Positions 5,550 to 27,355 of a DNA stretch of 64,000 nucleotides are shown here, piece after piece. Location: contig JBNJNM010000024.1 of assembly GCA_052426225.1 (NCBI GenBank), forward strand, positions 1 through 64,000. The letters run 5' to 3'. Within the stretch, counting starts at the first letter, position 1. Each line of letters starts with the position of its first letter. Source of the stretch: Zancudomyces culisetae HAW-14-8 (Eukaryota; Fungi; Kickxellomycota). A program made the position numbers and the translations under genes. The notes under the pieces were generated by a model. It ran no database searches, had not been told where the DNA came from, and worked only from the letters and a program-made list of their open reading frames with translations.

Positions 5550-5931
5550 TATTTTATTTGTTTTAAAGGTTGATTCATGCTTATTTATACTATCAGGATA
5601 TAAATCCAAACCATTTCACAATGTAGGTTCGGCATGTGTCTATTTATACAATGATGTGAAAATGAAACAATACGACAGTTTTGCTTTAGGAGTTAAAACT
5701 ATGGGATTCTATGAAGGAAATTATCATGTCGAACTGGGAATAGGTGATTTAAACATTGATTTTTCCAATGGCACATATAAAATAAATACCACGCCATTCT
5801 ACACGTGTAAAGGTAATGGCTATAAACTTAATTTTGATTGTTATGATCTTTACTCGTCGGTATACTGCCAGACATTCTGCGATAATGCTTTTGGAGCATG
5901 CATAAATTGGTTTAATAATGAAGTTCAATAA
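5518..5931 (+). CDS. Small secreted Cys-rich protein (candidate toxin/effector)
   Basis: Signal-peptide-like MRYYFSLFIFNILFVLKVDS followed by a ~117-aa mature region with 7 Cys. Confidence 0.6.
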   Translation: MRYYFSLFIFNILFVLKVDSCLFILSGYKSKPFHNVGSACVYLYNDVKMKQYDSFALGVKTMGFYEGNYHVELGIGDLNIDFSNGTYKINTTPFYTCKGNGYKLNFDCYDLYSSVYCQTFCDNAFGACINWFNNEVQ

Positions 5932-5957
5932 ATTAAAAATTTTAAAACTTTAAAATA

Positions 5958-6939: not shown

Positions 6940-7407
6940 TCAATGTCTCAAATCCCTTAAATATGATATCAGATCGGTTAATTGTGTTGATGCATCAAAA
7001 CTGAAAAATTGATATATATTCGTACCTTCATTATTCATAGAAAAAATTCTTACAGAACTTGGATATATAATCATAGCTTTAGAGCAATTAAGTATTTTAA
7101 GAAAGTGCATCATTAATTTATCATCTTCATCACTATTAGATATTAAAGGCGTACATAATATAGCTATTATATTTTTATGTATATTTATATCTTCTACATA
7201 TTGTATAATATCTGATTTATGATATTTCACGGCACGCTTAGTTGATGTTATTGTTCTTCTTATATAACCATTTGACAAATTTAAACCCGAATAATGACAG
7301 CATAAAATAGCTATACTGTTATTTTTATATTTATCAGATGAATTGAAAAATAATTCTTTCAGATTATTAATTTCTATACTAGACATTTTAAAAAATAAAT
7401 ATTTCAT
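6940..7407 (-). CDS. Hypothetical protein, candidate toxin immunity factor
   Basis: 155-aa ORF overlapping the toxin stop by 4 nt (ATGA); no signal peptide; function inferred from position only. Confidence 0.5.
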   Translation of the reverse strand: MKYLFFKMSSIEINNLKELFFNSSDKYKNNSIAILCCHYSGLNLSNGYIRRTITSTKRAVKYHKSDIIQYVEDINIHKNIIAILCTPLISNSDEDDKLMMHFLKILNCSKAMIIYPSSVRIFSMNNEGTNIYQFFSFDASTQLTDLISYLRDLRH

Positions 7408-10400
7408 ATTCCTTTTTTTCTTTGCTGTATAATTACAGGCTCGTTACTAACAGGAAAAAACTCATTGAAATAATTTCTTACTCCTTGTCGTAATCCTGTT
7501 CTCACAGGAATAATAGCTGATTGCTGACATAGAGTTGGGTTGAAATTTAATAAATATACTCGAAAAGCCCCCCCGGGAGGTATAGGTCCAACGCGAGGAG
7601 ATGATAAAGGATTTAATATGTCGTTTTTTTTCCAAATTCCAGTCGCATTTAAAAAATGGCGAAATTGTATACCGTCATATGTATTTTCACTTTTATAAAC
7701 GCATCTAACAGAAATATAATATTCGTCCGGATTTGTTATGTTATTCATTCCTTCACTCATACTTCCAAATGGAAATTCATCTCTTTGATAATCTGGTATT
7801 ACCATTGTTTTGTTATCACTTCGATTAATTATTCGACCGGGTAGATTAACGCACGAATGCTGATCTAGATAAGGGTCGTCATTCTTTCGACCGTCTGGTC
7901 GACGTGTAAATGTATTATATGCAACGGGTAGTAGTTCTTGCGGGACATCTATTGCATCATCATCCCCATTAATAAGTCTAAGTCTATTAATTTCTGTAAA
8001 CACGAAATAAATATAAGCATTGCATGCTACACCTACGCTCCGACCGTGAAAGTTTACATAGTATATCGGCTCATCATCTCCATCATTATTTTCTGTTATA
8101 GTTTTCGTAAATATATTATAATCATCATCTATATTGGGATTTCTAACACAATAATTTTGCGGACTCGTAGCTTTTTTATACCAGTTAAAATAAGCTTTAT
8201 GTTGTAAAATCATAGGCATATCACTTACCGGTTGAATACTATACTGATCCTGATATTTTTCCATATCATACCCTATTAAATCATCATTTATTACAAAATC
8301 AACAGGATACTTTGAATTTGTGGGATTATTTATTAATTCTATTGTATGTTCTAAATTCGCTTGATTACTATTAATAATTTTCATTAGATCATCGGGGATG
8401 GGAAATGTGTCTTTATTATAATTTGCTATTATCGTGGCGATAGCGAGTAAACCAAGTGAAATTGCTCCGACAACTACACCAGAAGCTAGCCCTGGTATTG
8501 ATATCGCCAATAAAGCAGCTTGTAACCCACTTGTATACACTTGAACTCCAGTATAAACAAAAACACCAATAGCTGAAGTATTTATCATTCCAACAAAGGG
8601 TTCATTTAATCCTCTCTTTTTATTATTATAATTAATGGAAGAACCAAATACGATACATCTCTTATAATAAAAATATAATATGGCGTAGTTATTATCATTT
8701 TTAACATCTATATTAGTTATAAACTTATCCATTTTTGTAAATAATTCATCATAATCGGCTTTTGAACTTATAGAATATACTATATTGAATTTATCTTTGA
8801 ATTGTTTTATATCACTATCATAAGTTAAAGATGCATTGCTTCTCCAGTATGATATTACACCTTTTATATAATCAACCATAATATCTCTTAAATAGTTACG
8901 CGTACATGATGATGACAGTAGTGTATTGAAATCGTATATATCTGATGTGTCGCATGATATTTTATTTCCGGCATCTAGATCCTCTGCCCACGTAACAGTA
9001 CCCCCCATATTGGCGAATGAGGCTAGATCATTTCTGAAGCTAATTTGTTCATCTGTAAGATAAGAAACCCATTGATCTGTACCATATACCAGAATCTGAG
9101 ATAGATCGTCATCATAATGTTTTCTTATAGTTTCGCTTTTCAGAATATCTCTAATTTCCCCCAAAGCTAAATAACCAGGTGTATTTGTACATTTACCCGG
9201 TTTTGCTTTTGATTCTATACCGGCAAATCTACAATCTGGACCGTAGCAGTTGGGATCTTCCATGCCAAAAGTTCTACCATACTTAGCAATACCTAATAAA
9301 ACTTTATTGGATTTTACGCCTGCATGTGTTATCAAAGCTAGCATTTCTAAAGTTTCAGTCATATTTACGTGCGACTTAAGATAATTACCTGTCCATAAAT
9401 TGGTATAATCCCATTGTCCGTGCAAATCATAAGTCATAAATACTATATAATCTGTAAATTCCGACATTATATCTATTATAAAATTCTTAAGATACCAATA
9501 ACTAGCTGGTGCCGCTATAGATACAGTCTTACCTAATGGATAAAGTTTAATAAATAATTCATAAACAAACAATGTATAATATATTGGATCATAAGAATCA
9601 CCAATTGGAACACCTGGAATATCAGTAGCTCCTGGATATTCCCAATCTATATCTACACCATCCAGATTATTATCGATAATAAATTTGGCCACATTTGCAG
9701 CAGATACTTCCCAATTAGCTACAGCTTTTCTAAGATTATTATATGTACCACTATCTGTACTTATACCCCAACCACCTATACTTAATATTCTCTTAATACC
9801 TCTAAGAGATTTAAAAGCTTCGAATTGCTCTCTAGCTCTGAAATCCATTTGGACATTATAATCAACAATATCGGCAAATGCATAATGAAGATGGGTATAT
9901 TGAGACCAGTCTATTTCGTCAATACGTTTGTTCAAGCATGGCCAGTTTTGATTCCATGTTTCATAATAAGCAATTTTTCTAAAATTAGAAGGGGGTTCGG
10001 ACATTACGTATTCGATAACACAATTACTATAACAACCTGTAGTGCCTGGAGCGTTAGTTGTACTGTTTTTCTTTTTACAGAAGTCTTCGGTAATGCCACA
10101 ATAACCCCATTCACCACAGCAAGCGTTTAAAGGACAATCGGTATTATACTTATCTCCGGGTGCTAAAGGACCACATTCTGCATTGGGATCTGGAGTTGGA
10201 ATAGGAGGTTTACCAGGAGATATACATAATTTCTGACCAGGGTATAGTTTATCACACCCATCCCATTTCCATGTACTTTTATTATAATCGAATAACTGAG
10301 TTGACGAAATGCCAGCGTCATCTATAATTTTCTGACACCAATCACCAGGTTGCACTGTTATAAAATAACAATTGCCATCTTTATCCGGAGTTGGATCAGG

Positions 10401-10853
10401 TTTTACTGTATTGCTAGCCCACGTAGCTGAACAATTATTATCATAAATAACAAAGTTTCTATCACGTTGAAGCATAGCACAATACGGACCCGTTCCTCTG
10501 TTGGCAGTGTTAGAAGCCCATGTAGCTTTATTACCATCTGCATATAATACCAGATTACCATCAGGCTGCATCACAACATCATACTTACTAGCCGAACCCG
10601 AAGTACCACTCCACCATACACCAGAATCTTTGTCGGACAAAATAAAATATCCATCACGTCTAATGTTTAGTTTATAGTTACCAAAGCTCATACTATCCCA
10701 ACCAGAAGTTGATAATGAGTTGTATTGATCAACAGCTTTATATGTACCACTGTATGATACGATAGATACGCCTAATGCCCAATCTTGACATTTGCTGCAA
10801 TAACTGTTAATGTTTGGTATAAATAAAATACCAATAATAAATAACGCTAGCAT
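7404..10853 (-). CDS. Secreted zymocin-alpha-like killer toxin precursor: B-lectin + LysM + hevein (CBM18) + GH18 chitinase + KR site + hydrophobic segment + NucA/NucB-like nuclease
   Basis: Signal peptide; QPDGNLVLY and QRDRNFVIY (bulb lectin QxDxNxVxY); ITVQPGDWC...LYPGQKLCIS (LysM); CPLNACCGEWGYCG (hevein); SIGGW and LDGVDIDWEYP (GH18 DxxDxDxE); NNKKR|GL; hydrophobic helices; RDEFPFGSMSEG...VRCV..SEN..DG. Confidence 0.9.
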   Translation of the reverse strand: MLALFIIGILFIPNINSYCSKCQDWALGVSIVSYSGTYKAVDQYNSLSTSGWDSMSFGNYKLNIRRDGYFILSDKDSGVWWSGTSGSASKYDVVMQPDGNLVLYADGNKATWASNTANRGTGPYCAMLQRDRNFVIYDNNCSATWASNTVKPDPTPDKDGNCYFITVQPGDWCQKIIDDAGISSTQLFDYNKSTWKWDGCDKLYPGQKLCISPGKPPIPTPDPNAECGPLAPGDKYNTDCPLNACCGEWGYCGITEDFCKKKNSTTNAPGTTGCYSNCVIEYVMSEPPSNFRKIAYYETWNQNWPCLNKRIDEIDWSQYTHLHYAFADIVDYNVQMDFRAREQFEAFKSLRGIKRILSIGGWGISTDSGTYNNLRKAVANWEVSAANVAKFIIDNNLDGVDIDWEYPGATDIPGVPIGDSYDPIYYTLFVYELFIKLYPLGKTVSIAAPASYWYLKNFIIDIMSEFTDYIVFMTYDLHGQWDYTNLWTGNYLKSHVNMTETLEMLALITHAGVKSNKVLLGIAKYGRTFGMEDPNCYGPDCRFAGIESKAKPGKCTNTPGYLALGEIRDILKSETIRKHYDDDLSQILVYGTDQWVSYLTDEQISFRNDLASFANMGGTVTWAEDLDAGNKISCDTSDIYDFNTLLSSSCTRNYLRDIMVDYIKGVISYWRSNASLTYDSDIKQFKDKFNIVYSISSKADYDELFTKMDKFITNIDVKNDNNYAILYFYYKRCIVFGSSINYNNKKRGLNEPFVGMINTSAIGVFVYTGVQVYTSGLQAALLAISIPGLASGVVVGAISLGLLAIATIIANYNKDTFPIPDDLMKIINSNQANLEHTIELINNPTNSKYPVDFVINDDLIGYDMEKYQDQYSIQPVSDMPMILQHKAYFNWYKKATSPQNYCVRNPNIDDDYNIFTKTITENNDGDDEPIYYVNFHGRSVGVACNAYIYFVFTEINRLRLINGDDDAIDVPQELLPVAYNTFTRRPDGRKNDDPYLDQHSCVNLPGRIINRSDNKTMVIPDYQRDEFPFGSMSEGMNNITNPDEYYISVRCVYKSENTYDGIQFRHFLNATGIWKKNDILNPLSSPRVGPIPPGGAFRVYLLNFNPTLCQQSAIIPVRTGLRQGVRNYFNEFFPVSNEPVIIQQRKKGI

Positions 10854-11000: not shown

Positions 11001-11924
11001 ATGAGAGATATATTATTATATATTTTATTTTTATGCGGTATACATGCTGGTGATACCGTCTTCTTTCTACTAATGAATGATATAGAGGATAATTTATCTT
11101 ATCTATGTTATAGTATCAACGGGGTTAATTTATACAAGGGGGTTACAGCGGATGATAGACATGTAATCAGAAGTACATATAAAATTATAAATGATGATAT
11201 GGTTACAGATCCTTTACTAGTTTTTGATAATATGGGTGATAATAAATATGCTATAAAAAACTTAAATACTACATTTACCCATTATGGTATATTGAATGCT
11301 GATTATGAAAGTGATTGTTTATATTTCGAGGAAGAATTCTTCATACAAAAAAATGAAAATATGTTATACCCTTCCAAAATAAATAATTCCGGATTAAATA
11401 ACACACAGTGTCAGATGTCAAATAATGATTGTCTATCATGGAGTAATGATATATTGAATTTCAATGTAACAAATATAAATGGTAAAAAATATATAAATAC
11501 AGCCTCATCCGCGAGAACAAAGGTTCGTATCCATCGCGAAGCTAATAAAAATGATAAAAGAGATAAAAATGATAAAAATGATAAAAATGATAAAAAGACT
11601 AACAGAAAAAATAATAAGCCCGCGAAAACAAAGATATATGCGAATGGCGTAAGTAGTAAAGCTGTTAATTATAGAGAAATATTAAATAAGAAAAAAACAC
11701 CAAAAATAACACCAGAAGCTAAAAATGAAGATAAATTAAATACGTATATTGACGGTGTGAATACATCATACACGAAACCAAAACCATCACCTACATACAC
11801 ACGCAAACCGATGCAAACTTACAAAATAGATCCCGGTCTAAATAGAATAGATCTATTATTGGATAGATATAAAGATATAATCCCCGATGATATTAAAAAT
11901 AAAATATCGAAAATGAGAAAATGA
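11001..11924 (+). CDS. Secreted hypothetical protein with NDK repeats and a basic C-terminal half
   Basis: Signal-peptide-like MRDILLYILFLCGIHA; (AATGATAAA)n repeat near 11545-11595; divergent from the toxin gene. Confidence 0.65.
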   Translation: MRDILLYILFLCGIHAGDTVFFLLMNDIEDNLSYLCYSINGVNLYKGVTADDRHVIRSTYKIINDDMVTDPLLVFDNMGDNKYAIKNLNTTFTHYGILNADYESDCLYFEEEFFIQKNENMLYPSKINNSGLNNTQCQMSNNDCLSWSNDILNFNVTNINGKKYINTASSARTKVRIHREANKNDKRDKNDKNDKNDKKTNRKNNKPAKTKIYANGVSSKAVNYREILNKKKTPKITPEAKNEDKLNTYIDGVNTSYTKPKPSPTYTRKPMQTYKIDPGLNRIDLLLDRYKDIIPDDIKNKISKMRK

Positions 11925-11963: not shown

Positions 11964-12104
11964 TTTTAAATAGTTAGTTATTTAAATAAAAATAGTTTTA
12001 AAACTTTTTTTATATATTGTTATTTGATGATATGCTATATTCCTATATACAATATATATATTTCGATAATATTAGTATACATATTTTTTGTTATTCGAAA
12101 AATA
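11964..12104 (-). repeat. Inverted repeat IR-B (141 bp)
   Basis: Reverse complement of 1184-1323. Confidence 0.95.
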
Positions 12105-12145: not shown

Positions 12146-13048
12146 TCAATATTTACTTCTTGATAATATATATTCAATATTGACATCATTTATATCTAAA
12201 TTCCTAAGCATAGCAATCAATTTAGATTTACTCAAAACTATTCTATCAGAATCTATTTCAATTTCCGAATTAGATCTAAAGCAACCGTATGTTATTTTTT
12301 CAATGTTGATATACGCATTATCATTATCATGTATTCTACAACATATTAAACACATAGATGGTTCACTCCTATCCAATCTAAATATATTTTTACTAATTTG
12401 TTTTCCCCATTTGTATGATTGCAAACTATTATTTTTATTGGGTATTGATGATATAGAATTTTTATAATTATATGAAAGGCTGTTATCTTTAATCGATGTA
12501 GGAAGTATAAAATATTTATATCTATCTAATAAGTTGTTATTTTTAAACATGCGAAATTTTCTATTGGAAAAATGTTTATCAGAGCCTAATGTTCTAATCA
12601 ATCTATTTTTTGTATATATAGATCTATCGTATCTTTTAGATAGTATTAAATCGTTGGAAGAAGTAAGTATATCGAATTTATTTATCATATCTTTTATATT
12701 TAATATGTTATGTATAATAAAATGTAGAGATATATGTTTGTTAGTACTGCATGTTTTTATATTTATATCGGATATACCAAATATTTTTGTATATGTCGAA
12801 ATAAAATTATTTACAATTACATCTTCACCGATGTCAATATTTTTACCATCAAAATCATATATTTCTGTCCATCTATCTTCATCAGCTATCATTTGATAAT
12901 AGCAAGGATTATCTGTTTCATCTATAAGCTTTATAAGTGAATCTATACTATCTATAAATGAATATTCTTTACATCCTTTACTATTTATATCTCTAGCTAT
13001 TATTATTGAATTGTTAGGTACCGATGATAGATTTTTATACCATATCAT
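12146..13048 (-). CDS. Archaeo-eukaryotic primase, PrimPol/NCLDV-herpes clade, with C-terminal Zn finger
   Basis: Motif I YDFDG (DxD), motif II ISLH (SxH), motif III YDRSIYTKNRLIRTLGSDK; C-terminal CLICCRIHDNDN...GCFR. Confidence 0.85.
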   Translation of the reverse strand: MIWYKNLSSVPNNSIIIARDINSKGCKEYSFIDSIDSLIKLIDETDNPCYYQMIADEDRWTEIYDFDGKNIDIGEDVIVNNFISTYTKIFGISDINIKTCSTNKHISLHFIIHNILNIKDMINKFDILTSSNDLILSKRYDRSIYTKNRLIRTLGSDKHFSNRKFRMFKNNNLLDRYKYFILPTSIKDNSLSYNYKNSISSIPNKNNSLQSYKWGKQISKNIFRLDRSEPSMCLICCRIHDNDNAYINIEKITYGCFRSNSEIEIDSDRIVLSKSKLIAMLRNLDINDVNIEYILSRSKY

Positions 13049-13226: not shown

Positions 13227-16200
13227 TTATATTGATTTCTTATTGCATATAGAATTCAATTCTCCTGTATAAGGAGTATATATACCAATAGTAGATGCGG
13301 CTTCTCTAGCAGCTTTAGCTTGCAAATACCACTCATCATCTGATAATCCTTTCTGATAACAACTTTCTATAGTACCGATTTTTTCATTCTGAACTATAAC
13401 GTCTCCAATTCTTTCGTATATAAACTTAAAATTGAAATCTTTACCTTTGCTTTTATTATTTATCATAGTGTATATACCTTCTTTGTTGGCTGTTAAACCA
13501 TCTTCTGTTATATGTTTTGGATATCTATACTCTTTTTTATTATCGGGTATTGATAAAAGTTGACTATGATTATTATCTGAAGAGCAAGATATACCCAATA
13601 TATAATCTTGTATATATATAGGCCTTACTGGTAACTCGGTATATATCTTATTCATACCATAAACACACATCTCATCCCCATCAAAATCGGCATTAAAAGA
13701 ACTACATAATAAAGGATTTATGCGTATACATTGTGTATTACCAATCACTAATTTAACCGACATTATCGATTTATAACTTAATGATGGCTGTCTATTCAAT
13801 AACCCATAACTCGTACCAATATCGGATCCAAATGGTATTTCTATTGTATCAATAGGCAGTTCTGGATTTGGTACAATAACTGATCTTAGACAGTGATTTA
13901 TCTTATGACCTTCAACTAATCTATGATAAGCTCCATTTTTTCCAAATAATAATCTTTTATGTTCTTTAATAATTTTTTTACCCGCACCAAATCTACTATA
14001 TAGATTATTTAAATATGTAGATCTCAATATGCATGGTAGTACCGGTGTGTTTTTATAGAATCGCACATCTAATAAATCTGTATCGCCGAAGAATAAATCA
14101 TTGGTCTTATTATATTCATTTTCGGAATAATCAACTATAGAATATTCATTCGCGTCATACCAATATCGTATATCATAACCATTGGATCTCAGCAAAGAGC
14201 AACAAATTAGTAGATATTGATTGCAGTTTATCTTGACAAATGTACACTTGTCATCTTCATTCACGTCTTTTTTATTGTTTGGCGAATTCGTTAAACAATC
14301 TTTAAACCCATCGCAATATTTATTAATTATATGAGTCGATATAAACCCGCATATTGAGCAAGAATACGCTATAGTCTTATCCATCTTATATATCTCTTCT
14401 AGTATATCATGACATCCTATGGCTATCATAATATCTCTTTCCATACTACCAAATCTTAAACCTCCATTTTTCGATTTGCCTGATTTGGCTTGTTTTGTTA
14501 TATTATCAATTTGTCCGAAATCTCTATATTGTATTTTATCATCTACTTGATGTCTTAAAGCCATGTAATAACATATACCAACCAAAATTTTATTTTTTAC
14601 ATTTTTTATATTACCATTACCATCATTAAATCTGACATTATATTCTTTTTCCCCCATTTCCTTTATCTGTCCGTAAGTCATTCTACCCGGAAATGCATGT
14701 GGATTTATTAACAAATCTATATTAATCCATGCATTCTCCGAATCATCATAATATTGAGGCATATATTCATCATCAAGTATTAAGCTTACAATACCCTTTT
14801 GACCATGTCTATTGGACATTTTATCGCCAATTTTGATATTTCTGTAATTCCTAACAACTATGGTAAAACATTTTGGATTATATAAAATAGAAGATACTAT
14901 ACCTACGTGATTAGACCTAACATTTTCAATAGTAGTTATTTGTGACGGTTTAAACGATTTAAACAATTCGCTACCTTTGCTGACATAATCTCCAACTTTA
15001 ACATACACATTTAAAATTCTATCTTCGGAACTTTCCAATCTACATGAATAACAATTTTGTTTAACACTCATATATTTTTTACTGGTAGATTTACTTATAA
15101 CAACAGCATCCTCTATATTAAATCCATACCATGGCATTATAGCCGTTTTTAGATTCCAACCATACGGAGTTGGAAAAGATTTACCAATTATTGGTTGCTC
15201 ACCTTTTATAAGCCATTTAACATCATTAAACGGTAGTTTTAATCTATTATCAACAGTTAGAGCTTGTTTAATCATACTACAAGTAAACATCGCTCTAACA
15301 GCTGGATTATGTGTTATAAATGGAATATAATCAGCTGTTACAGATACATATCTATCTTTAATAGGATTATAAATTCTACCGTTATGTGTCCATACTATTA
15401 TTATTCTATCATCTTTGTATATGTTATCATTATTTGACACTTTTACATCTTTGACTTTACCGTTGAATTTACCATCGATAAAAAGATAATACTCATCAAT
15501 AGTTGATGATGCGTTATAATTAAATACCCATTCATTTGTTTGGATATTATTATGAATATTATGAATATTATTACAATTTGATGCATCGTTATGGATGATT
15601 TCATAATCTGTATTCTTATGAGTTATTCTAGCATCTTTAGATAAATATAAAATTGTACCGCATAAAGAACCATCAGAAGTTTGCACAGGACATATCAGAT
15701 ATTTATATTCATCTTTAACCAATCTTTCTTTCATAGACATATGTTCTCTTGCCGTGGGAAATGTTATACGTCTTATAGATTCTATATCTCCTAAAATAGA
15801 ATAATGTTTCATATCTTCCGATATAGAAGTAACGTTCTGTATATTTTTTATAACCCAGTTGTGTGTACGGAAAAATTTAACAACATCATATTCATGTTTG
15901 ATGCAATCATAAATCAGCTCACCGGGCGTTATCAATCTTCTCTTAATATTAACATTATTAGTTATACCAAGCCAGTTTTCAAACATATAACATAATATGA
16001 CGGCATCATCTTCTGATATTTCTTTAGAAAATTTAGTCTTCTTAGTTTTAGCCACTAAATCTAGATGAGTTTTTAACTTATGCATATCCACTGATTTGCG
16101 ATATATCAAATCGTAATTAATAGGCAAATTCCATTTGGTAGTTTTACCTTTTAGTGTTAGCTCGTAGTTACCCATAGAAATAATGCTTATTCTTCTACTT

Positions 16201-16511
16201 TCGGAAATATAAGCTCTATCTTTAGTATATAAAGTATTGCTCATCATAAGAATTAGAGATAATGATTTGCATATACCATCAATAATAAAATATCCATACA
16301 TTTCTATGGGGTTATCATTTTTATGTATAGATAAATGAATATCTGAACCAATCATTATTGGTATTCTCTTATTTTCTATAATTGCTACATAACTCAATTT
16401 ATTATTTATACATTGAGATGGATTATTCAATATAGTTATATTCGTATTATATGGATAATATATATTATATATTTCAATTTGTCCAAAACTTGTATAGTCG
16501 TATGATGACAT
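13227..16511 (-). CDS. DNA-directed RNA polymerase, fused Rpb2(beta)-Rpb1(beta') catalytic subunit
   Basis: Rpb2 motifs ICPVQTSDG, IPFITHNPAVR, GFNIEDA, GDKMSNRHGQKG, INPHAFPGRMT, GGLRFGSMERD; Rpb1 motifs LRSVIVP, NRQPSL, NADFDGDEM, and bridge helix GLSDDEWYLQAKAAREA...TPYTG at the C-terminus. Confidence 0.96.
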   Translation of the reverse strand: MSSYDYTSFGQIEIYNIYYPYNTNITILNNPSQCINNKLSYVAIIENKRIPIMIGSDIHLSIHKNDNPIEMYGYFIIDGICKSLSLILMMSNTLYTKDRAYISESRRISIISMGNYELTLKGKTTKWNLPINYDLIYRKSVDMHKLKTHLDLVAKTKKTKFSKEISEDDAVILCYMFENWLGITNNVNIKRRLITPGELIYDCIKHEYDVVKFFRTHNWVIKNIQNVTSISEDMKHYSILGDIESIRRITFPTAREHMSMKERLVKDEYKYLICPVQTSDGSLCGTILYLSKDARITHKNTDYEIIHNDASNCNNIHNIHNNIQTNEWVFNYNASSTIDEYYLFIDGKFNGKVKDVKVSNNDNIYKDDRIIIVWTHNGRIYNPIKDRYVSVTADYIPFITHNPAVRAMFTCSMIKQALTVDNRLKLPFNDVKWLIKGEQPIIGKSFPTPYGWNLKTAIMPWYGFNIEDAVVISKSTSKKYMSVKQNCYSCRLESSEDRILNVYVKVGDYVSKGSELFKSFKPSQITTIENVRSNHVGIVSSILYNPKCFTIVVRNYRNIKIGDKMSNRHGQKGIVSLILDDEYMPQYYDDSENAWINIDLLINPHAFPGRMTYGQIKEMGEKEYNVRFNDGNGNIKNVKNKILVGICYYMALRHQVDDKIQYRDFGQIDNITKQAKSGKSKNGGLRFGSMERDIMIAIGCHDILEEIYKMDKTIAYSCSICGFISTHIINKYCDGFKDCLTNSPNNKKDVNEDDKCTFVKINCNQYLLICCSLLRSNGYDIRYWYDANEYSIVDYSENEYNKTNDLFFGDTDLLDVRFYKNTPVLPCILRSTYLNNLYSRFGAGKKIIKEHKRLLFGKNGAYHRLVEGHKINHCLRSVIVPNPELPIDTIEIPFGSDIGTSYGLLNRQPSLSYKSIMSVKLVIGNTQCIRINPLLCSSFNADFDGDEMCVYGMNKIYTELPVRPIYIQDYILGISCSSDNNHSQLLSIPDNKKEYRYPKHITEDGLTANKEGIYTMINNKSKGKDFNFKFIYERIGDVIVQNEKIGTIESCYQKGLSDDEWYLQAKAAREAASTIGIYTPYTGELNSICNKKSI

Positions 16512-16887
16512 TTTTTAATATTATAACTATAATATTAAACAAAAAATTTACAAAACCATCTTTAATTATTCACATATTAATATTTCATTTTTTTAAAAAT
16601 ATATACAAAAACAATTAAAAAATATAATATATTACAACTTATTCAAAACTAAGTTAAATACTATATTACATTCTATCCGAAGCTTAAAATATATAATACA
16701 TGATGATCAATCAGTATTATCATATTAGATATAAAAATCGATAGTGGTTTTAAAGTATATTGATAGATGAATAATTTTAAAAAATATAAAATTACAGATT
16801 ATATATACTTATTATATGCAATATTATATCTATTTTTTATTTTATACTCTTTGAAATATGCTCGATTTTATTAACATTGATATTACT

Positions 16888-17331
16888 TTATTCGTTCGAT
16901 AAATTTTCAATTAATTGTTTCTCCTCTTTACTCAATTTTTCTATCTTAACAGATTTAGTTTTTTTATCTCTTGTATGTACCTCTCTCTCATCCTGTGACA
17001 TATGAGACCAGCAACTGTATTCGTTACTTTTAGGTGCCATACATTGTTGATCATTCTTCTTTCTTCTAGTACATCTGTTTTCTTCACTGATAACCTTCTT
17101 GCTTTTTGTCGATTTTATATTCGATAATTTCATATCATCCAACATATTAATAAGAGTAGATATATCCACATCTTCATTATAATTATCTAATTTATCTATA
17201 ATTTCATCAATTGTCTCATCTCTTATAGCATCTCTCAATTCCTTTTGAATTCTTTTACTCATTTTTATTAATATTATTCTGCTTATATAAAAATAATATA
17301 TATTAAATTTGCAGTCATCATCTAAATTCAT
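16888..17331 (-). CDS. Small protein with NCLDV-type C3H Zn finger (likely start at 17262, MSKRIQ)
   Basis: RCTRRKKNDQQCMAPKSNEYSCWSH = C-x9-C-x9-C-x2-H. Confidence 0.6.
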   Translation of the reverse strand: MNLDDDCKFNIYYFYISRIILIKMSKRIQKELRDAIRDETIDEIIDKLDNYNEDVDISTLINMLDDMKLSNIKSTKSKKVISEENRCTRRKKNDQQCMAPKSNEYSCWSHMSQDEREVHTRDKKTKSVKIEKLSKEEKQLIENLSNE

Positions 17332-18736
17332 ATACGCTCTTTTTATACTTAAAAGTTTTTAATCTATGTGTCTCCAACATACCACTACAGTATATCGTAC
17401 GCTTCTTATCGAATGGGAATGTTATTATATCATTATCATTAGGCTTCACTATTCCTATATAACTCAAATCCATCAATGGCCCATATCTCAATCTATTTAA
17501 ATAATTATAATCATGGATTATTTCTTTATAATAATAAGGCAATACTGGTATATTGTTTATCCTAACTCCGTTTACTATTTTTTCCTCGTAGTTATATTCG
17601 TTTTCATATTCATCTTTAATACATTTTATATATATCTTTGATATATTCCAGTCTGAATCAAGAACTTGAGCACATATATCAGCATGATACTTATGTATAT
17701 CTATTCTTTTATCAAAAGTGCTTATTATAATACCATCCATTACGATATATTTAGGATTTATATCTGTTGATATAAATTTTCCTCTCGCATCAATATATAT
17801 CGATGCTTCCGTATTGTGTTTACGTTGTTTCAAAAATGTTCCATTTTCTTCGCATATTCTTCTTACAATTACCGGTATTGTATTTTTTTTCGATATATAT
17901 TTATCGGTACTCTGATAAGTAGAATATAATCTCGGTAAATATATATAAGGATTATCATCATATCTTTCTTTCAATCTCACATATTTATTTGTATCTGGAT
18001 TCGAATAATAATTACCTCTGAATTCTATAGAACTCTTATTTAAAGGTTTTTTTGATATCATAGGCCATTCTCTCTGATTTTCTCTACGAGCTTTATACCA
18101 AACCTCATAATCTATAGATTGATGTATACTTGCCGGATCTATACTTGGCTTATCTAGCATATCGAATATTTTAATATAATTATCAGCTTCTCGATTATAT
18201 TGTTCTTCCAACTCTGCGCATAATTTATCCATTTCATCATGTTCTTCTTGGTTGGATGATGAATGCGATATAACACCAGATACTATATCCATTTCCATCT
18301 TTTTGTATCTAACTGTTGCTCTTGTTAAACATGGTTTATTGTCTTCCAATATTTCCATATCTTCCATCATTTCTATAATATTTAACAATATATGAAAATC
18401 GAAATTCCATCTGTATAATACTGTATGTGCTAATGATGTAGTTTTTGTTATATTTATTATATTTGAAAGGCTAGATAAAGCTGAAATTATGTCATATGTG
18501 ATAACAGATCCTTTATTTTTATTCATTCTATAAATTCTATATTTACTAAACATAAAAAAATCTGATTCTTTATCCTTATTTATCTGTGGTGATTTCCCGT
18601 TATATCCCAACGATACATTTTTAATAGATATATAAGGCCATAATTCTGACATATTAAAATTATCTATGAATATAAGAGGATTTATTTCTTCATATTCAAA
18701 TTCCAATAACCATCTAATGACTGAAATTCCCACCAT
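17318..18736 (-). CDS. Putative degenerate early transcription factor large subunit (VETF-L/A7-like)
   Basis: Segments FIDNFNMSELWPY and RENQREWPMI...EFRGNYY...NPYIYLPRLYSTYQ recall NCLDV VETF-L motifs with the Cys residues lost; recognised by eye only. Confidence 0.4.
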   Translation of the reverse strand: MVGISVIRWLLEFEYEEINPLIFIDNFNMSELWPYISIKNVSLGYNGKSPQINKDKESDFFMFSKYRIYRMNKNKGSVITYDIISALSSLSNIINITKTTSLAHTVLYRWNFDFHILLNIIEMMEDMEILEDNKPCLTRATVRYKKMEMDIVSGVISHSSSNQEEHDEMDKLCAELEEQYNREADNYIKIFDMLDKPSIDPASIHQSIDYEVWYKARRENQREWPMISKKPLNKSSIEFRGNYYSNPDTNKYVRLKERYDDNPYIYLPRLYSTYQSTDKYISKKNTIPVIVRRICEENGTFLKQRKHNTEASIYIDARGKFISTDINPKYIVMDGIIISTFDKRIDIHKYHADICAQVLDSDWNISKIYIKCIKDEYENEYNYEEKIVNGVRINNIPVLPYYYKEIIHDYNYLNRLRYGPLMDLSYIGIVKPNDNDIITFPFDKKRTIYCSGMLETHRLKTFKYKKSVYEFR

Positions 18737-18969
18737 TGTAGCTGTAAGATTGATATCATATAAATCTTTCAGCGTACCTTATAAGTTACTAATATCACAT
18801 ATATTAGGAGCAAATTGCGATAAAATAGGTAAATTAAGACTTAAACTCGAGGCCAATAGAAATCTGATTCAAGAAGGAGTTTACATACTACCACCCATCA
18901 GATGGATTACATCATTTGATGTCATTGATACATTTGAAATTGAATGCATAGTGGATAACGTTAAAGAAA

Positions 18970-19425
18970 ATGAAGTGTGCTATATGCCTGGAAACAAATT
19001 GCAAAAAGAACAATATGTTAATGGAAAACATGGATTATTTTTCGGAAATAACACAGAAAACTTTAAGCGCTTTTCATAGAGCCGGTTTAGATTCTGATGT
19101 TTATGATGAAATTAATTCTCTAAAATTAGCAATTAGCGAAAAAACTATGATATTAATTACTGCTGAAGAAATTGAAGGGGGGAAGGTTAAAAGATTTTTT
19201 GATACGGGTGATACAGATATAGTTGATATAAAAGATATATACACTACAAAATATTATACCAAAGATACTGATAATTTAAGAAAACATTCGGTCGTTATAG
19301 ATGCTTTAAATAGAAAAGAAAGTAATATATCCAAAATATATAGTTCAAAGAATATTGATAATTTGAAATGCGATAGAAAAAAAATTGATAAAATAACTGA
19401 ACATATATTTTTTAAACGCAATTGA
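18970..19425 (+). CDS. RNA polymerase small subunit carrying the Rpb1 trigger loop and C-terminal region
   Basis: FSEITQKTLSAFHRAG aligns with Rpb1 IGEPATQMTLNTFHFAG; RKHSVVIDAL and DKITEHIFF recall Rpb1 region H. Confidence 0.75.
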   Translation: MKCAICLETNCKKNNMLMENMDYFSEITQKTLSAFHRAGLDSDVYDEINSLKLAISEKTMILITAEEIEGGKVKRFFDTGDTDIVDIKDIYTTKYYTKDTDNLRKHSVVIDALNRKESNISKIYSSKNIDNLKCDRKKIDKITEHIFFKRN

Positions 19426-19938: not shown

Positions 19939-21276
19939 ATGGATGAATATCAAATAATAAAAAATATAATTCCGAATTATTCTTTCGAGTGTGATATAAT
20001 AGATATCTTTCATCAGTTAAACATTTCAAACACAAGAGAAATCTATGATGAAAAAATAAGAAACATAGAAGCAACAACAAATTACGATAAAGCTAATAAA
20101 TTTTCATTGTTATATAAAGATAAATTCGTATGTATAGACTGCGATAGAAAAATATTTTACGTTTTCAATAACGGTATATGGGAAATTGATCATGGTAATA
20201 TATGTTTGATTAAATATATTATAAATTTCTATCCATCTTGCGGTAGTAATTTCAATAAAAGAAAGAGTTTTATAAATGATATAGCACTACATTCTTATAA
20301 TAAAAAATTTACAGAGAAATTAAGCAATTTTAAATCTATTAGAATTGGGAATGTATCATTTGATGTATTTAACGGCAATCTGAGAGATGGTTATCCCAAT
20401 GATTACTGTTCTATAAATACTCACATGCCTTTAAATATAGATTATAAAGAGAAAGTATTGCGTATGCTAAAAGATATATTCCCTCAAGAAAATATAATGA
20501 AATATTTCTTAAGATATGCCGGCTCATTGTTAATACCTGGAAATAAAGATAAAATATTCATGATTTGGAATGGTATAGGTAATAATGGCAAATCTATATT
20601 GGCGAGATTAATCGAGTTGGCTATGGGAGAATATTCTATAAAATTACCGACATCTCTTGTAACTGGTAAAAGAACAATATCGTCTGGAGCCACACCAGAA
20701 CTGGCTCTATTGGAAAAAAAATTGGTAGCATTTCTACAAGAACCGTCTCATGATGAGAAGTTAAATATAGGGATAGTTAAAGAACTCACAGGAAATGATA
20801 CCATATATGTAAGAGGACTATATAAAGAAGGTTCGAATATAAATGTGCTTGCGAAAATAATATATATAGTAAATACAACAGATAATATAGCAGTATTGGA
20901 AGAAGCTATATGGAATAGAATAGTTGTTTTACCATTTATATCCAATTTTACAGATAAAATAATACTCCCTAATGATTTACCTGTAGATAAAATGTTAGGT
21001 GGTAAGTTAAGAACATATGCCGGTTCATTTATGGAAATAATGATTGAAGAAGCGCGTAGATATATAAATGAAGGATTGTTGGAATGTAAAGAGATAGAAG
21101 AATCAACAAGAGCCGTACAAGACGAGAATGATATTATAATTAAATATATAAAACAAAATAGATTCAGTAGTAATAGCTACGAAGGATTGATTGCTTTTAT
21201 TAGAGATTTTCATCCGCAAGCGCAAGTACCGAGTTTTAAGTTATTCAATAAAAGAATAAATACTATAAATGTATAA
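19939..21276 (+). CDS. D5-like superfamily 3 helicase (D5_N + P-loop NTPase), no primase domain
   Basis: FYVFNNGIWE and LRDGYPNDYCS (D5_N); Walker A GIGNNGKS; ATPELA; Walker B region AFLQEP; VKELTGNDTIYVRGLY; AIWNRIVVLPF. Confidence 0.93.
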   Translation: MDEYQIIKNIIPNYSFECDIIDIFHQLNISNTREIYDEKIRNIEATTNYDKANKFSLLYKDKFVCIDCDRKIFYVFNNGIWEIDHGNICLIKYIINFYPSCGSNFNKRKSFINDIALHSYNKKFTEKLSNFKSIRIGNVSFDVFNGNLRDGYPNDYCSINTHMPLNIDYKEKVLRMLKDIFPQENIMKYFLRYAGSLLIPGNKDKIFMIWNGIGNNGKSILARLIELAMGEYSIKLPTSLVTGKRTISSGATPELALLEKKLVAFLQEPSHDEKLNIGIVKELTGNDTIYVRGLYKEGSNINVLAKIIYIVNTTDNIAVLEEAIWNRIVVLPFISNFTDKIILPNDLPVDKMLGGKLRTYAGSFMEIMIEEARRYINEGLLECKEIEESTRAVQDENDIIIKYIKQNRFSSNSYEGLIAFIRDFHPQAQVPSFKLFNKRINTINV

Positions 21277-21421: not shown

Positions 21422-21937
21422 TTAAATTTCGGATAATGTGAGTTTAGATATATCTATTTCCAGATCACTATCTTTTACTTTGCATATTACTATTTCATTA
21501 GCATTTAACTGAATAGTAGTTTTTGTATTCATTTGGAAAATGGATTGGACAGTAATTGATATACATGCGTAGAAAATTTTACCGGTTAAATCGGTATTTA
21601 GAATTTTTCTAGTTTTTACATCAGTTATTCTTGTTTTATCATTTATGTTTATTTTAATGTTGCCGTCATAAAAAGGATCAGTTACTGTTATGTCATATTT
21701 TTCTGATATTGAATCTATTATATCATTTATCATCTTTGTTAGAACTTTAGATTTCAACAAAATTTGTCTCTTGTTATATTTAGTTGTTGTTATACCATCT
21801 ATTATCATGAATTTGTTTTTCTCTGATATCTGTAGAATCCCTCCATCATAGTATATATCGATTAGAAATCCCTCACCCAATTTTCTTTTATCGTCGGATA
21901 AACTTATCAATGTTTTATCTATGCTATTATATATCAT
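21422..21937 (-). CDS. Hypothetical protein, candidate OB-fold ssDNA-binding protein
   Basis: 171 aa, beta-rich C-terminus (ACISITVQSIF...TIQLNANEIVI) and short acidic tail; fold is inference. Confidence 0.35.
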   Translation of the reverse strand: MIYNSIDKTLISLSDDKRKLGEGFLIDIYYDGGILQISEKNKFMIIDGITTTKYNKRQILLKSKVLTKMINDIIDSISEKYDITVTDPFYDGNIKININDKTRITDVKTRKILNTDLTGKIFYACISITVQSIFQMNTKTTIQLNANEIVICKVKDSDLEIDISKLTLSEI

Positions 21938-21979: not shown

Positions 21980-23743
21980 TTATTCTTTGAGATATATTTG
22001 CTCTTCAAAATAGTAGTTATTTTTTGAAATATAGTCTATTATGTTGATATTTTTATCAATTTTGAGTGTTTGTTTTATTATTTCCCATTCATCACGATTC
22101 ATATTATCTATAAGTTTACCTCTTCTTTGAAATTTTTTATTCTTCGTTATATCTATATATGTAAATCTTAATCTTCTATCTACACAACTTCTCCATATAA
22201 GTGGAGTGTTTGGATAATCGCGAGTTGTAAATATGTTCATATCCGAGCATACGCTTATAGATTTCTTTCGATTTACGATATCATAACACTCAGCTTTATC
22301 CGGATATACATTGCACCATGATATTTTATTTTCATTTATATCGAAGCATTTCCTAAAATCCCATATAAAATCATCAATTTGAAATATTTGTATATTATCG
22401 GGTATTGGTGGATTGAATATCTCGGCTAGAGGTTTGCATACGTTTTCTGTTTTAATATCATTCATAACTTCCAATATCTTTATATTTTTATCGTATGCTA
22501 TTTTGTACATATCAATATCTATAGAATTTAAGCATACATGCTTATATATTTTTATTTGTACATTGGATGTATGAGAACCTTTTCGTATAACACGGCCTAT
22601 AGCCTGATTTATATATCCGTAATTCCAATACGGTGTTAATATATGTACATTTGTTACGTTTTTCAAAGTTATAGATTCGTTAAGCACGTTACTTCCTATC
22701 AAAAGACGTATTACTTTTCCGTTATAATTTTGCAAGCTATTGAAATCCCGCAATATATTATTTATTTCTTCGGTAGATACATTACCATTTATTACAGCAT
22801 AAGATTTCTCCTGACCTCTTACTGTTGTCCAACCTAAATGATTTAAAACATCGCATAAAAACGTAATCCCTCTTTTTATATAATAAACAAAAACTACAAC
22901 CAATTCATTTTCTGGTATGTTATTTATAAGAAAATTTATTTTGGCTGACTGTTCTTCTAAAGGAATATTTTTGTTATAAACACCGGTACTTAATGTTAGC
23001 TGACGTAATGTTGTATATATATCTTTGCATTTTTTACCTTTTTCATCATTATATTTTTTTAACTGTAAACCTTTCATTTCGGTCGCGAATAGCATATTGT
23101 TATTGATTATATCTTTTTCCGAATTATTCGAATATTTTATATCTTTATTTAGTATATAAACACCATATCCGTATTTAAACGTGTTTTCGGCATAAGCTAT
23201 TGGCGTTTCTATGGGTAGCATATTGCATAATGATTTCAATTCGTTAGGATTATCTATCATTGGCGTGGCTGATATTATAAGAAGTTTCGAGTTGGTGGAA
23301 TCATGCATTTTCTTTTTTATATATGTATATCTGCTAGCATTTTCTCTCATATTGTGAGCTTCATCTATAATTACCAAAGAATTGTCTATATTCACTTTAT
23401 TTCTCGAGAAGCTTGTTAAACCGTAATATTTTATATTCATACTTTTACTATTTAATCTATTCTCATTTATAAAAATTTTATATTCATTCTTAAAATTTGT
23501 TATTGTATTTGTGTTATGCGATATGAAAATGACATCAAAACCATTGATATTGAATAAATATGATAAGGCAGCTGCGCAGTAAGTTTTTCCAATTCCCAAC
23601 TGAAATGATAGTAGTAGACTTCTATATGGTGTTTTAGGATGCATATATGATAAAACAAAATTTTGTTCCGGGGTTGTTGTGGTAAATGATACATTTTCGA
23701 TGCAGTTATGAGGGTTATCTTCGTAATATATTGGAATATTCAT
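21980..23743 (-). CDS. SF2 DExH helicase/ATPase, poxvirus D6/D11 (VETF-S/NPH-I) family
   Basis: PEQ..HPKTPYRSLLL, Walker A LGIGKT, IIDEAHN, SATP, FNSLQNYNGKVIRLLIGS, ILTPYWN, QAIGRVIRKGSH. Confidence 0.92.
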   Translation of the reverse strand: MNIPIYYEDNPHNCIENVSFTTTTPEQNFVLSYMHPKTPYRSLLLSFQLGIGKTYCAAALSYLFNINGFDVIFISHNTNTITNFKNEYKIFINENRLNSKSMNIKYYGLTSFSRNKVNIDNSLVIIDEAHNMRENASRYTYIKKKMHDSTNSKLLIISATPMIDNPNELKSLCNMLPIETPIAYAENTFKYGYGVYILNKDIKYSNNSEKDIINNNMLFATEMKGLQLKKYNDEKGKKCKDIYTTLRQLTLSTGVYNKNIPLEEQSAKINFLINNIPENELVVVFVYYIKRGITFLCDVLNHLGWTTVRGQEKSYAVINGNVSTEEINNILRDFNSLQNYNGKVIRLLIGSNVLNESITLKNVTNVHILTPYWNYGYINQAIGRVIRKGSHTSNVQIKIYKHVCLNSIDIDMYKIAYDKNIKILEVMNDIKTENVCKPLAEIFNPPIPDNIQIFQIDDFIWDFRKCFDINENKISWCNVYPDKAECYDIVNRKKSISVCSDMNIFTTRDYPNTPLIWRSCVDRRLRFTYIDITKNKKFQRRGKLIDNMNRDEWEIIKQTLKIDKNINIIDYISKNNYYFEEQIYLKE

Positions 23744-24019: not shown

Positions 24020-24068
24020 ATAGCTATATAAAATATAAATAGCTATATAAAATATAAATAGCTATATA
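24020..24068. repeat. 19-bp tandem repeat, ~2.5 copies
   Basis: ATAGCTATATAAAATATAA repeated next to the GC hairpin. Confidence 0.85.
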
Positions 24069-25362: not shown

Positions 25363-27177
25363 ATGGATGATAAAATACAAAAAATCGAGAATATATTAAA
25401 TGTATTCGAATCTATACAATGTAATGTATTACATACTAATATAGAATTGGAAGCTAGAATGTGTATACCCCCACCTACAAACTTTATAGATTATGAGACT
25501 ATAACAATTCAATATTATAAATCTCAAGATTTACCAACATTAACTATACGAAAGGAATATGGAAAGGATTATATAGAAACAAAAGAACTAGTCGATAGAG
25601 TTATTATAGAAAATATTAATATAGTATGTTCTGTAGAGAAAAGATATAGAAATTTTGATTATATATTAAATAAACACATATTAAGAAAAATCGACAGGCT
25701 CAAAATACAAGATAATCCATTAGTAGTTATAAATAGAGAAAATAATATATATATGTTGGAAGTTGAATTTGAGAGAGATACACTATCCGAGACAATAGAT
25801 ATATTGAATAGTTATTCTGTACCATTTTGGCCGTGTGTAAAACCACAAGATGCTTACGCATCAGAAATATTATCTAATATAGATAATAATATATTATATA
25901 TATCGCCTAAATATGATGGCGAACATGCTGTTATGTATCTCGATACTGAAACAAGGGTAATATGTATAATTAAAGATAATGGAGAGATAAACATGAGCAA
26001 TTCATTGGATAATTTTGATACTGTTTATGAAGTTGAATTGGTAAATACCGACATATTTATATTGGATATAATGATGTATAAAAATGTCAAGTTAACAGAT
26101 AATAATTATTTAGATAGATTAAAATATGCAAAATATATACAAGATATAACTCATAATTATATAGTATATAATGAAGAAACTCGGAAATATATATCCGCTG
26201 ATATAATAAAGAATGAACGTATACCTGAAAATATATGTTCGATAAAACTAAAAAATATATATAAAATAACAGATTATGATAGTTTGCGAAATGCTAAAGA
26301 TAATATATATAATATTTCAGCAAAAATAGACGGTGTTATATTGACCAATGAAAAGGGTTATTATAATACAGTGTATAAATCTAAACCAAATCCTACAGTT
26401 GATTTACAATATATTAATGGATATTTATATTTAGCTAGAGAAACCAATTCGCAAAGAATATCTCATATCGAGCTGGAAGAAGGATGTATATATGAGTTTG
26501 ATATAAATTTAAATCCAATTAGAAAAAGAGAAGATAAACTTATTCCAAATTATTATATGCCGGTTAAAGATGATGTTATTGATAATATATGCACAGGACA
26601 TGGTATTCCATGTCTAAGATATCACCATAACAAAATAAAGCTTATTATGCTAAAAAAATTTAATGGAATATTATTAGATATAGGTTCTGGATTGGGTGGT
26701 GATATATCTAAGTGGGATCATTTCACTAAAGTGTATGCTATAGATCCCGAGACCAGGCTTAGAAATGTATCGGCAAATATAACATTTCTAAGATGTAAAG
26801 TTCAAGATATAAAAAATATATATTTTGATATAGTAAGCATATTTTTCGTACCATGGTGTAACGATTTCATCAAATTCATGCTCCGATCTAAACATGCTCT
26901 ACTTATTATTATGGATAAACCTTCCGATCTAGATAGTGATAATATAAAAATTACCAAATTGGAAAACAACATGGTAAATATAAATATACCCAATACTAGT
27001 ACAGCTTCGAATATAACGGAGGAAATACCAGATATAAAAAATATAGATAATATTATGATTGGAAACGGATATAAAAAACATGATTTGACTCATAAATATA
27101 ACATATCATTTGCGACTAAAGAGGAAAAAGAACTCTCCAAAATGTACACATATATAATATACTCCAAAATAATGTAA
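25363..27177 (+). CDS. Trifunctional mRNA capping enzyme (triphosphatase, guanylyltransferase, N7-methyltransferase)
   Basis: TTM motifs ELEAR and LEVEF; GTase KYDG, YEVEL, ILDI, DGVIL, YKSKP, REDK; MTase HNKIK and LDIGSGLGGDISKW. Confidence 0.93.
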   Translation: MDDKIQKIENILNVFESIQCNVLHTNIELEARMCIPPPTNFIDYETITIQYYKSQDLPTLTIRKEYGKDYIETKELVDRVIIENINIVCSVEKRYRNFDYILNKHILRKIDRLKIQDNPLVVINRENNIYMLEVEFERDTLSETIDILNSYSVPFWPCVKPQDAYASEILSNIDNNILYISPKYDGEHAVMYLDTETRVICIIKDNGEINMSNSLDNFDTVYEVELVNTDIFILDIMMYKNVKLTDNNYLDRLKYAKYIQDITHNYIVYNEETRKYISADIIKNERIPENICSIKLKNIYKITDYDSLRNAKDNIYNISAKIDGVILTNEKGYYNTVYKSKPNPTVDLQYINGYLYLARETNSQRISHIELEEGCIYEFDINLNPIRKREDKLIPNYYMPVKDDVIDNICTGHGIPCLRYHHNKIKLIMLKKFNGILLDIGSGLGGDISKWDHFTKVYAIDPETRLRNVSANITFLRCKVQDIKNIYFDIVSIFFVPWCNDFIKFMLRSKHALLIIMDKPSDLDSDNIKITKLENNMVNINIPNTSTASNITEEIPDIKNIDNIMIGNGYKKHDLTHKYNISFATKEEKELSKMYTYIIYSKIM

Positions 27178-27215: not shown

Positions 27216-27355
27216 TATTTTTCGAATAACAAAAAATATGTATACTAATATTATCGAAATATATATATTGTATATAGGAATATAGCATATCATCAAATAA
27301 CAATATATAAAAAAAGTTTTAAAACTATTTTATTTAAATAGCTAACTATTTAAAA
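27216..27355 (+). repeat. IR-A, copy 2
   Basis: Same as 1184-1323 at +26,032. Confidence 0.95.

Follow-up and report, generated by a model that had tools for sequence, protein, structure and literature searches.

A pGKL2-type split RNA polymerase encoded beside predicted RNA-primed replication genes in a likely fungal virus-like element from a Zancudomyces culisetae assembly

Terminal-protein replication is the defining feature of fungal virus-like elements (VLEs), whose origin has been explained by the union of a polinton-type polymerase with transcription genes of giant viruses. Described VLEs encode a protein-primed family B DNA polymerase (PolB) that contains TPR1/TPR2 inserts and to which a terminal protein is fused (PMC11161782); that of Debaryomyces hansenii has about 1000 amino acids (aa), compared with 697 in the enzyme reported below. 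The RNA polymerase of the Kluyveromyces lactis plasmid pGKL2 is divided into ORF6 and ORF7 between beta'a15 (bridge helix) and beta'a16 (trigger loop), and the ORF6-ORF7 complex was detected in vivo in K. lactis by co-immunoprecipitation, with ORF7 being essential (Sykora et al. 2018, PMC6211774). Here we analyzed a stretch of 64,000 nucleotides (nt) from Zancudomyces culisetae HAW-14-8 (Kickxellomycota; assembly GCA_052426225.1, contig JBNJNM010000024.1, positions 1 to 64,000), hereafter the window, which holds repeated copies of a likely fungal VLE. Its RNA polymerase is a further member of the known family, while the unusual part is the presence of RNA-primed-type replication genes on a VLE. 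The RNA polymerase genes are the following:

13227..16511, reverse strand: orthologue of YKP6 / pGKL2 ORF6, 1094 aa, an Rpb2::Rpb1 fusion (Pfam, identity to K. lactis ORF6, bridge-helix hhalign, tree)
18970..19425, forward strand: orthologue of YKP7 / pGKL2 ORF7, 151 aa, trigger loop at nt 19039-19086 with Gln29 and His36 (homologues, alignment, profiles)

A sequence-only reading of this locus had proposed a two-barrel RNA polymerase of about 1250 aa, composed of a fused large subunit that runs from Rpb2 motifs to the Rpb1 motif NADFDGD and ends at the bridge helix, and of a small trigger-loop subunit; domains and profiles agree with this architecture. The Pfam matches of the 1094-aa protein followed the order Rpb2_3 (residues 234-296), Rpb2_6, Rpb2_7 (683-737) and Rpb1_2 (904-951). 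Both double-psi barrels are present in the chain, with NADFDGD at residue 940 (nt 13694-13674) and the bridge helix at its end, 26 residues (inclusive count) from the bridge-helix Arg1069 to the last residue. The family profile of the last 134 residues matched the canonical Rpb1/RpoA' funnel and bridge helix, represented by segments of 31 chains, with an hhalign probability of 96.5 (E 9.6e-10). No alpha-like subunit was recognized by Pfam among the 18 open reading frames (ORFs) scanned, again as proposed.

The suspected kinship to pGKL2 ORF6/ORF7 was supported on both subunits. Identity of the large subunit to K. lactis ORF6 (P0126 = P05472) was 43.6% over residues 9-1091, and about 40 full-length homologues were recovered (BLAST identity 36-52%), with named sources including VLEs of L. 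kluyveri, M. acaciae, P. etchellsii, S. crataegensis, D. hansenii and K. lactis, as well as Cunninghamella echinulata. NADFDGD, GDK and HGQKG were kept in all 43 rows of the large-subunit alignment (partial P0041 excluded; two rows are cluster mates of others), and the trigger-loop motif was found in none of them. In a quick tree, whose root is unreliable and in which a Conidiobolus-linked row forms a long branch, the window protein grouped with Cunninghamella in a non-yeast clade (SH-aLRT 99), separate from the clade of the named yeasts (SH-aLRT 92).

The same reading had suggested a split at a point other than that of the yeast enzymes, which would make this a new minimal RNA polymerase. A gene order unlike that of the yeast helpers, with the large-subunit gene moved, would suit such a novelty, as would the separate clade and an extra N-terminal Cys motif in six of the 30 small subunits, including that of the window. 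However, 41 of the 43 rows stopped at one and the same alignment column (the window, K. lactis ORF6 and 39 others; of the remaining two, one is truncated and one is six residues longer), so the split does not lie at a new point. This refutes the proposal on the large-subunit side and leaves it scarcely any probability. Since the ORF6/ORF7 division had already been stated (Sykora et al. 2018), the architecture is not new.

The trigger-loop signature attributed to the small subunit, with its Gln and catalytic His, was also upheld. The stretch FSEITQKTLSAFHRAG covers residues 24-39 of the 151-aa protein (nt 19039-19086), and a HMMER scan returned 29 homologues, giving a family of 30 that shows no variation at T28, Q29, L32, S33 and F35 and has His36 in 29 members. 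The motif is above chance according to this conservation, TQxTLSAFH being the sole near-invariant block of the family. One homologue, P0302 of Saccharomycopsis crataegensis (48% over 71 aa), bears the name 'accessory subunit of RNA polymerase'. Profile-profile comparison of the 151-aa family with 45 RpoA''/Rpb1 C-terminal regions gave E 3.2e-5, compared with E 0.08 or worse for 20 column shuffles. When the family profile was used to rank 12,243 six-frame segments from 161 loci (79 with the trigger-loop pattern), Rpb1/RpoA'' trigger loops made up 12 of the 13 top matches; locus L161 was dropped from this ranking because it had been fetched by the trigger-loop motif itself.

A different reading would take the motif as a chance occurrence, the 151-aa product not being a trigger-loop subunit and the large subunit working without a trigger loop. 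Several results weigh against our assignment, and the lack of direct matches and of region H also favors this reading. Single-sequence Pfam and PDB searches linked the 151-aa protein to nothing in Rpb1, and single-sequence PHROG, NCBIfam and plasmid searches returned nothing relevant. Although the yeast Rpb1 trigger loop (1076-1114) ranked first when the family profile was compared with PDB, it did so with only E 0.19, and the 161 ranked loci are enriched for RNA polymerase genes, several matches being close kin or near-identical. The region-H-like segments (beta'a20 / switch 5) claimed earlier for the 151-aa protein were not recovered: their score of 6.5 lies inside the 4.6-11.0 range of 40 shuffles, and profile comparisons with canonical chains likewise detected no region-H similarity (the published match of K2ORF7 residues 103-132 to this region has 13% identity; PMC6211774). 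K2ORF7 itself was absent from the named matches of the small-subunit search, and the large-subunit gene lies away from YKP5 and YKP7, unlike in yeasts, beyond the YKP9 and YKP10-position genes. A 2010 review (PMC2919709), whose text nowhere mentions orf7, detected no trigger domain in Orf6 and proposed that it may be dispensable. Against a chance motif stand the near-invariant block of the family, the profile ranking true trigger loops first, and the finding that K. lactis ORF7 is essential and co-purifies with ORF6 (PMC6211774); we therefore give this reading very little credence.

The monomer model of the 151-aa protein (predicted local distance difference test, pLDDT, 84; predicted template modeling score, pTM, 0.45) showed residues 15-55 as a single long helix. 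Fold searches with it returned generic helices only (best Z 4.8), with nothing below E 0.001 in BFVD, and the small-subunit tree was mostly unresolved.

Some further observations concern the two subunits. The N-terminal Cys-x2-Cys-x4/5-Cys motif (about 15 aa, window 18970-19010) found in six of the 30 small subunits is a possible zinc site missing from shorter members. At L161:2590-2640, on a contig filed in a bacterial metagenome-assembled genome, an intact Rpb1-like chain carries a VLE-type TQxTLSAFH, which makes this lineage a candidate donor of the small subunit. P0042 is a distant Rpb2::Rpb1 fusion (25%) whose cluster includes a Conidiobolus protein, on contigs of 32-91 kb. It ends in the same bridge-helix column as the window protein and may be a marker of a further, larger element class.

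In cellular enzymes, the trigger loop folds on the bridge helix at nucleotide addition, and its Gln and His take part. By sequence and profile, the large chain contributes the two double-psi barrels, the NADFDGD loop that binds Mg and the bridge helix at its very end, and the small chain contributes a trigger loop with Gln29 and His36 that would fold on this bridge helix at each nucleotide addition. Both proteins would assemble into one active site, transcribing the element's own genes in the cytosol and, together with the element's capping enzyme and superfamily 2 (SF2) helicase, starting at ATNTGA promoters, where transcription start in the cytosol has been shown in K. lactis. ATNTGA was found at most 120 nt upstream of 13 of the 18 genes (shuffle mean 6.3; 13 reached by 1 of 1000 shuffles), while the antisense strand carried it upstream of eight of the 18, a point that counts against this reading. 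Taken together, we identify the products of the two genes, with high confidence, as the two-subunit YKP6/YKP7 RNA polymerase of a VLE that is likely fungal, judging from its named relatives; the enzyme is divided at the yeast pGKL2 split point, and its subunits presumably form a joint active site. With about 40 large and 30 small subunits collected, both the place of the split and the residues of the trigger loop are fixed.

The replication genes of the element are of another kind:

1592..3685, forward strand: 697-aa PolB, RNA-primed type as in Pol delta and giant viruses (Pfam, PDB, model)
12146..13048, reverse strand: predicted archaeo-eukaryotic primase (AEP/PrimPol) with a C-terminal Zn motif, 300 aa (ESM Atlas, motifs)
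19939..21276, forward strand: D5-type superfamily 3 helicase, 445 aa (PHROG, TIGR01613, PDB, Walker A)

The window PolB, the sole DNA polymerase recognized on the element, is not a protein-primed enzyme with a fused terminal protein such as pGKL2-type helpers carry. It matched PF00136 and PF03104 in Pfam and not PF03175, with motif spacings of 57 (A-B) and 49 (B-C), and its best PDB sequence match was Pol delta (E 3e-45). Its model (pLDDT 92) was superposed on the Pol delta core over 686 of the 697 residues (1 to 697; Z 30.3, root-mean-square deviation 3.5), which leaves no room for a terminal protein; this structural match was tied with archaeal enzymes, and among predicted viral structures a pithovirus enzyme was best (E 2e-53). 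For the AEP candidate, which had no Pfam or PDB sequence match, ESM Atlas gave 0.98, and the ten best family matches were all AEP_C962R/Herpes_UL52, a family found on 16-37% of members in the top Atlas clusters. The D5-type helicase matched PHROG primase/helicase families (to E 9e-39), TIGR01613 (E 5e-24) and, as its best PDB match, the C962R primase-helicase (E 2e-11), with Walker A at residue 212. ATNTGA precedes all three genes. The combination of RNA-primed PolB and D5-type primase-helicase that characterizes Nucleocytoviricota is thus present, with the AEP part being a prediction. Together, the three genes point to primase-started copying, and the element is likely to be copied in this way on a circular or concatemeric template, not from terminal proteins.

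The layout of the window (G+C 24-34%) bears on the shape of that template. A 26,032-bp unit is read more than twice, in the segment order A-B-A-B-A inverted, so that the RNA polymerase genes come back at +26,032. Segments A (about 10.6 kb) and B (about 15.1 kb) are parted by a 141-bp inverted repeat (1184-1323 / 11964-12104), found in the window at 1184-1323, 11964-12104, 27216-27355, 37996-38136 and 53248-53388:

11964..12104, no strand: copy 2 of the 141-bp inverted repeat (partner 1184-1323 = 27216-27355), parting the 10.6-kb and 15.1-kb segments
27216..27355, no strand: copy 1 of the inverted repeat, where the 15.1-kb segment meets the 10.6-kb segment

One contig of run X5 bridges B-right, repeat and A-left (27173-27515), and one contig of run X3, a separate study from X5, joins reversed B-left, repeat and A-left, the reciprocal of the flipped-form junction in the window. 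Both orientations, each seen in one contig per junction, fit a circle or concatemer with two isomers. In addition, runs X1 and X2 deviate from the window inside the repeat (27308-27347; a 1-base insertion and a 16-base deletion), so the repeat is variable among strains, and an Rfam scan of window positions 1-27400 gave zero matches.

These data could also be read as an ordinary linear terminal-protein VLE, either as two molecules (10.6 and 15.1 kb) mis-assembled into one at a repeat that both carry, or with a protein-primed polymerase encoded elsewhere and PolB, AEP and D5 as passengers. In size and content the two segments do recall a killer-like and a helper-like plasmid, and a tandem and inverted layout is typical of assembly output, with each junction bridged by a single contig; however, the X5 contig bridges 27173-27515 and the X3 contig the flipped junction, and read depth in run X2 was alike over both segments. 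With respect to one segment the two copies of the repeat point inward, with respect to the other they point outward, which rules them out as termini common to both. As to passengers, PolB, AEP and D5 are intact and each has an ATNTGA motif, and in seven clusters of this RNA polymerase clade a member of the PolB clade occurs alongside, judged by equal contig sizes. Cunninghamella has additional protein-primed VLEs, and terminal repeats have been reported for its helpers (PMC13348850). The latter counts against primase-started copying of a circle, as do three features of the element: its ends (linear with terminal repeats or circular) cannot be seen from contigs, no recombinase for the 141-bp repeat was recognized among its genes, and the AEP is predicted from a language-model search and motifs only. 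On balance, a linear terminal-protein element appears unlikely.

Relatives of the window PolB formed 15 clusters (43-50% identity) in a distinct clade (17 rows) whose sister cannot be named, in a FastTree phylogeny built with every third distant match and unnamed outgroups. Within the non-yeast RNA polymerase clade, seven of the 18 other clusters were paired with a clade PolB on a contig of exactly equal size, and no representative of the yeast-clade RNA polymerase clusters was so paired. Co-location of PolB and YKP6 in the relatives follows indirectly, from equal contig sizes and accession order; locus searches yielded, among the matches listed, no VLE contig, only giant-virus-like loci or nothing. 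One 68,961-bp contig of C. echinulata carries four accessions each of YKP6 and PolB, which fits the published 69-kb Cunninghamella contig with four copies of a 16.2-kb helper VLE (PMC13348850). Node83, to which this helper has 94% identity, carries a polymerase assigned to 'Group 5', in which the authors could not discern a terminal protein (PMC13348850). The Group 5 gene of Umbelopsis isabellina spans 2034 nt, enough for 677 aa, the size of cluster P0175, to which an Umbelopsis protein belongs, and the PolB proteins of C. echinulata and Umbelopsis matched PF00136/PF03104 and not PF03175. From these observations, the published Group 5 VLE polymerases are probably RNA-primed, and it is very likely that they are not protein-primed. 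The words 'primase' and 'circular' are absent from the text and supplement text of Heneghan et al. 2026 (PMC13348850), and no report of an RNA-primed VLE was found in the literature covered, with most subscription papers and the Group 5 figures and Figshare annotations outside its scope. In the U. isabellina element, YKP4 is divided over both ends with a 127-bp overlap (bioRxiv 10.1101/2025.10.13.682091), which we infer to be a circular-assembly signature. The element questions the published polymerase tree at the point where Group 5 supports an ancient helper clade.

Two origins can be considered for the RNA-primed module. In the first, non-Dikarya helper VLEs (Group 5) would be capsid-less, RNA-primed, circular or hairpin-ended elements with Nucleocytoviricota-type PolB, AEP and D5, and VLEs would be shrunken giant viruses, reduced to 16-50 kb, with the yeast lineage later taking a polinton-type protein-primed polymerase. 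We advance this only tentatively. In the second, the module is real but was captured later, from a giant virus or the host, by a protein-primed ancestor, and would be uninformative on VLE origin. The look-alikes of AEP and D5 are Nucleocytoviricota-type, the best predicted-structure match of PolB is pithoviral, and the transcription module is already thought to derive from Nucleocytoviricota, so a single donor would be simpler. Nevertheless, the best solved match of PolB is the cellular Pol delta, a result that argues against ancestral retention and leaves later capture at least as open. Protein-primed polymerases are also far more diverse among non-Dikarya VLEs, and the RNA polymerase tree, with its long Conidiobolus-linked branch, lacks a reliable root. 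Later capture is accordingly a serious prospect, with a probability somewhat short of even. The choice between a 'reduced giant virus' and a 'polinton recombinant' becomes testable with trees.

Among the remaining genes of the unit are likely members of a pGKL2-type set, and cargo:

18666..19079, forward strand: DUF5474 protein, likely YKP8/ORF8 (Pfam E 8e-15; mapped to ORF8 by the profile length of 77 and the D. hansenii table)
17318..18736, reverse strand: DUF5483 protein, likely YKP9/ORF9 (Pfam E 7e-62; mapped by length and orientation)
16888..17331, reverse strand: 147-aa ORF at the position of YKP10, the terminal-region binding protein (position only)
21422..21937, reverse strand: DUF5482 protein, likely the YKP5 single-stranded DNA-binding protein (Pfam E 5e-25; mapped by length and order)
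21980..23743, reverse strand: SF2 helicase, YKP4-like (NPH-I/D11-like), 587 aa (Pfam; DEAH and other motifs)
25363..27177, forward strand: likely three-domain mRNA capping enzyme, YKP3-like, 604 aa (motifs only)
7404..10853, reverse strand: killer-toxin alpha/beta-type chitinase, 1149 aa, with B-lectin, LysM, hevein, GH18 and NucA/NucB-like parts (Pfam; hydropathy)

Among the pGKL2-type housekeeping genes, YKP4, YKP6 and YKP7 were thus established, YKP5, YKP8 and YKP9 were provisionally assigned through DUF matches, YKP3 through motifs and YKP10 through position, and gene neighbors and orientations agree with the D. hansenii helper. The DUF5474 gene and the small-subunit gene share 110 nt. The 147-aa ORF had no convincing family match in Pfam, PHROG or NCBIfam, and no candidate for YKP11 was found among window ORFs of 45-99 aa. 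In the 604-aa capping candidate, which gave no match in Pfam, PHROG, NCBIfam or PDB searches, we located putative triphosphatase, KxDG and S-adenosylmethionine (SAM)-binding motifs.

The chitinase has a hydrophobic N-terminus, and so have two more ORFs, at 5518-5931 (137 aa, within the 130-167 aa range of non-Dikarya cargo candidates) and 11001-11924 (307 aa). The 398-aa ORF at 4017-5213 has unnamed Mucoromycota and Basidiomycota proteins as ESM Atlas look-alikes (HSDR_N 0.80, a lead only) and is possibly a host-derived nuclease-like protein. At 5358-5567 and 5941-6149, the 3' end of a 306-aa gene is duplicated in inverted orientation with 79% identity, and the copy holds a 64-aa ORF (5355-5549). 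Between the helicase and capping genes, a 367-aa ORF (24062-25165) shows repeated Cys/His motifs, short tandem repeats and weak zf-C3Hc3H and HGGxSTG matches.

Compared with known systems, the RNA polymerase resembles that of pGKL2 and the yeast helpers in its fusion, its end after the bridge helix, its separate trigger-loop subunit and in that no clamp-head domain was recognized, and the element resembles pGKL2-type helpers in its DUF5474, DUF5483, DUF5482, helicase and capping enzyme neighbors and in ATNTGA. The enzyme differs from that of pGKL2 in being about 110 aa longer, in the N-terminal Cys motif (about 15 aa) of its small subunit, in the moved large-subunit gene and in belonging to the non-yeast clade. 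In archaea, RpoA' and RpoA'' likewise part the largest subunit between bridge helix and trigger loop (PMC6211774), and 22 of 33 canonical chains with the bridge-helix motif lacked a trigger loop in the same chain. Unlike the window protein, however, archaeal RpoA' extends 66-116 residues past the bridge-helix motif, RpoA'' has about 380-400 aa, and RpoB is unfused, with a full small-subunit set present.

The closest elements as a whole are the non-Dikarya helper or helper-killer fusion VLEs of Cunninghamella, Umbelopsis, Podila and Coemansia, which likewise carry the YKP set, chitinase and small secreted proteins on one molecule, and like the Umbelopsis VLE the window element has internal inverted repeats and, as far as contigs show, no terminal repeats (PMC13348850). 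Its YKP6 and PolB are 49% and 43% identical, respectively, to the C. echinulata proteins on the 68,961-bp contig. Unlike these VLEs as published, whose polymerases were all filed as protein-primed (PMC13348850), it has a PolB of RNA-primed type together with AEP and D5. With the Nucleocytoviricota core it shares PolB, D5 primase-helicase, RNA polymerase, capping enzyme and D11-like helicase functions, its D5 and AEP resembling two halves of C962R-type proteins. It differs from them in its 26 kb, in a reduced fused RNA polymerase instead of separate full-size Rpb1/Rpb2, in its killer-type chitinase cargo and in that no double jelly-roll capsid or packaging ATPase was recognized by Pfam among the 18 ORFs. 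The element may be a very small autonomous system for cytosolic replication and transcription, and it joins a VLE transcription set to an RNA-primed replication set, a combination otherwise assigned to giant viruses only.

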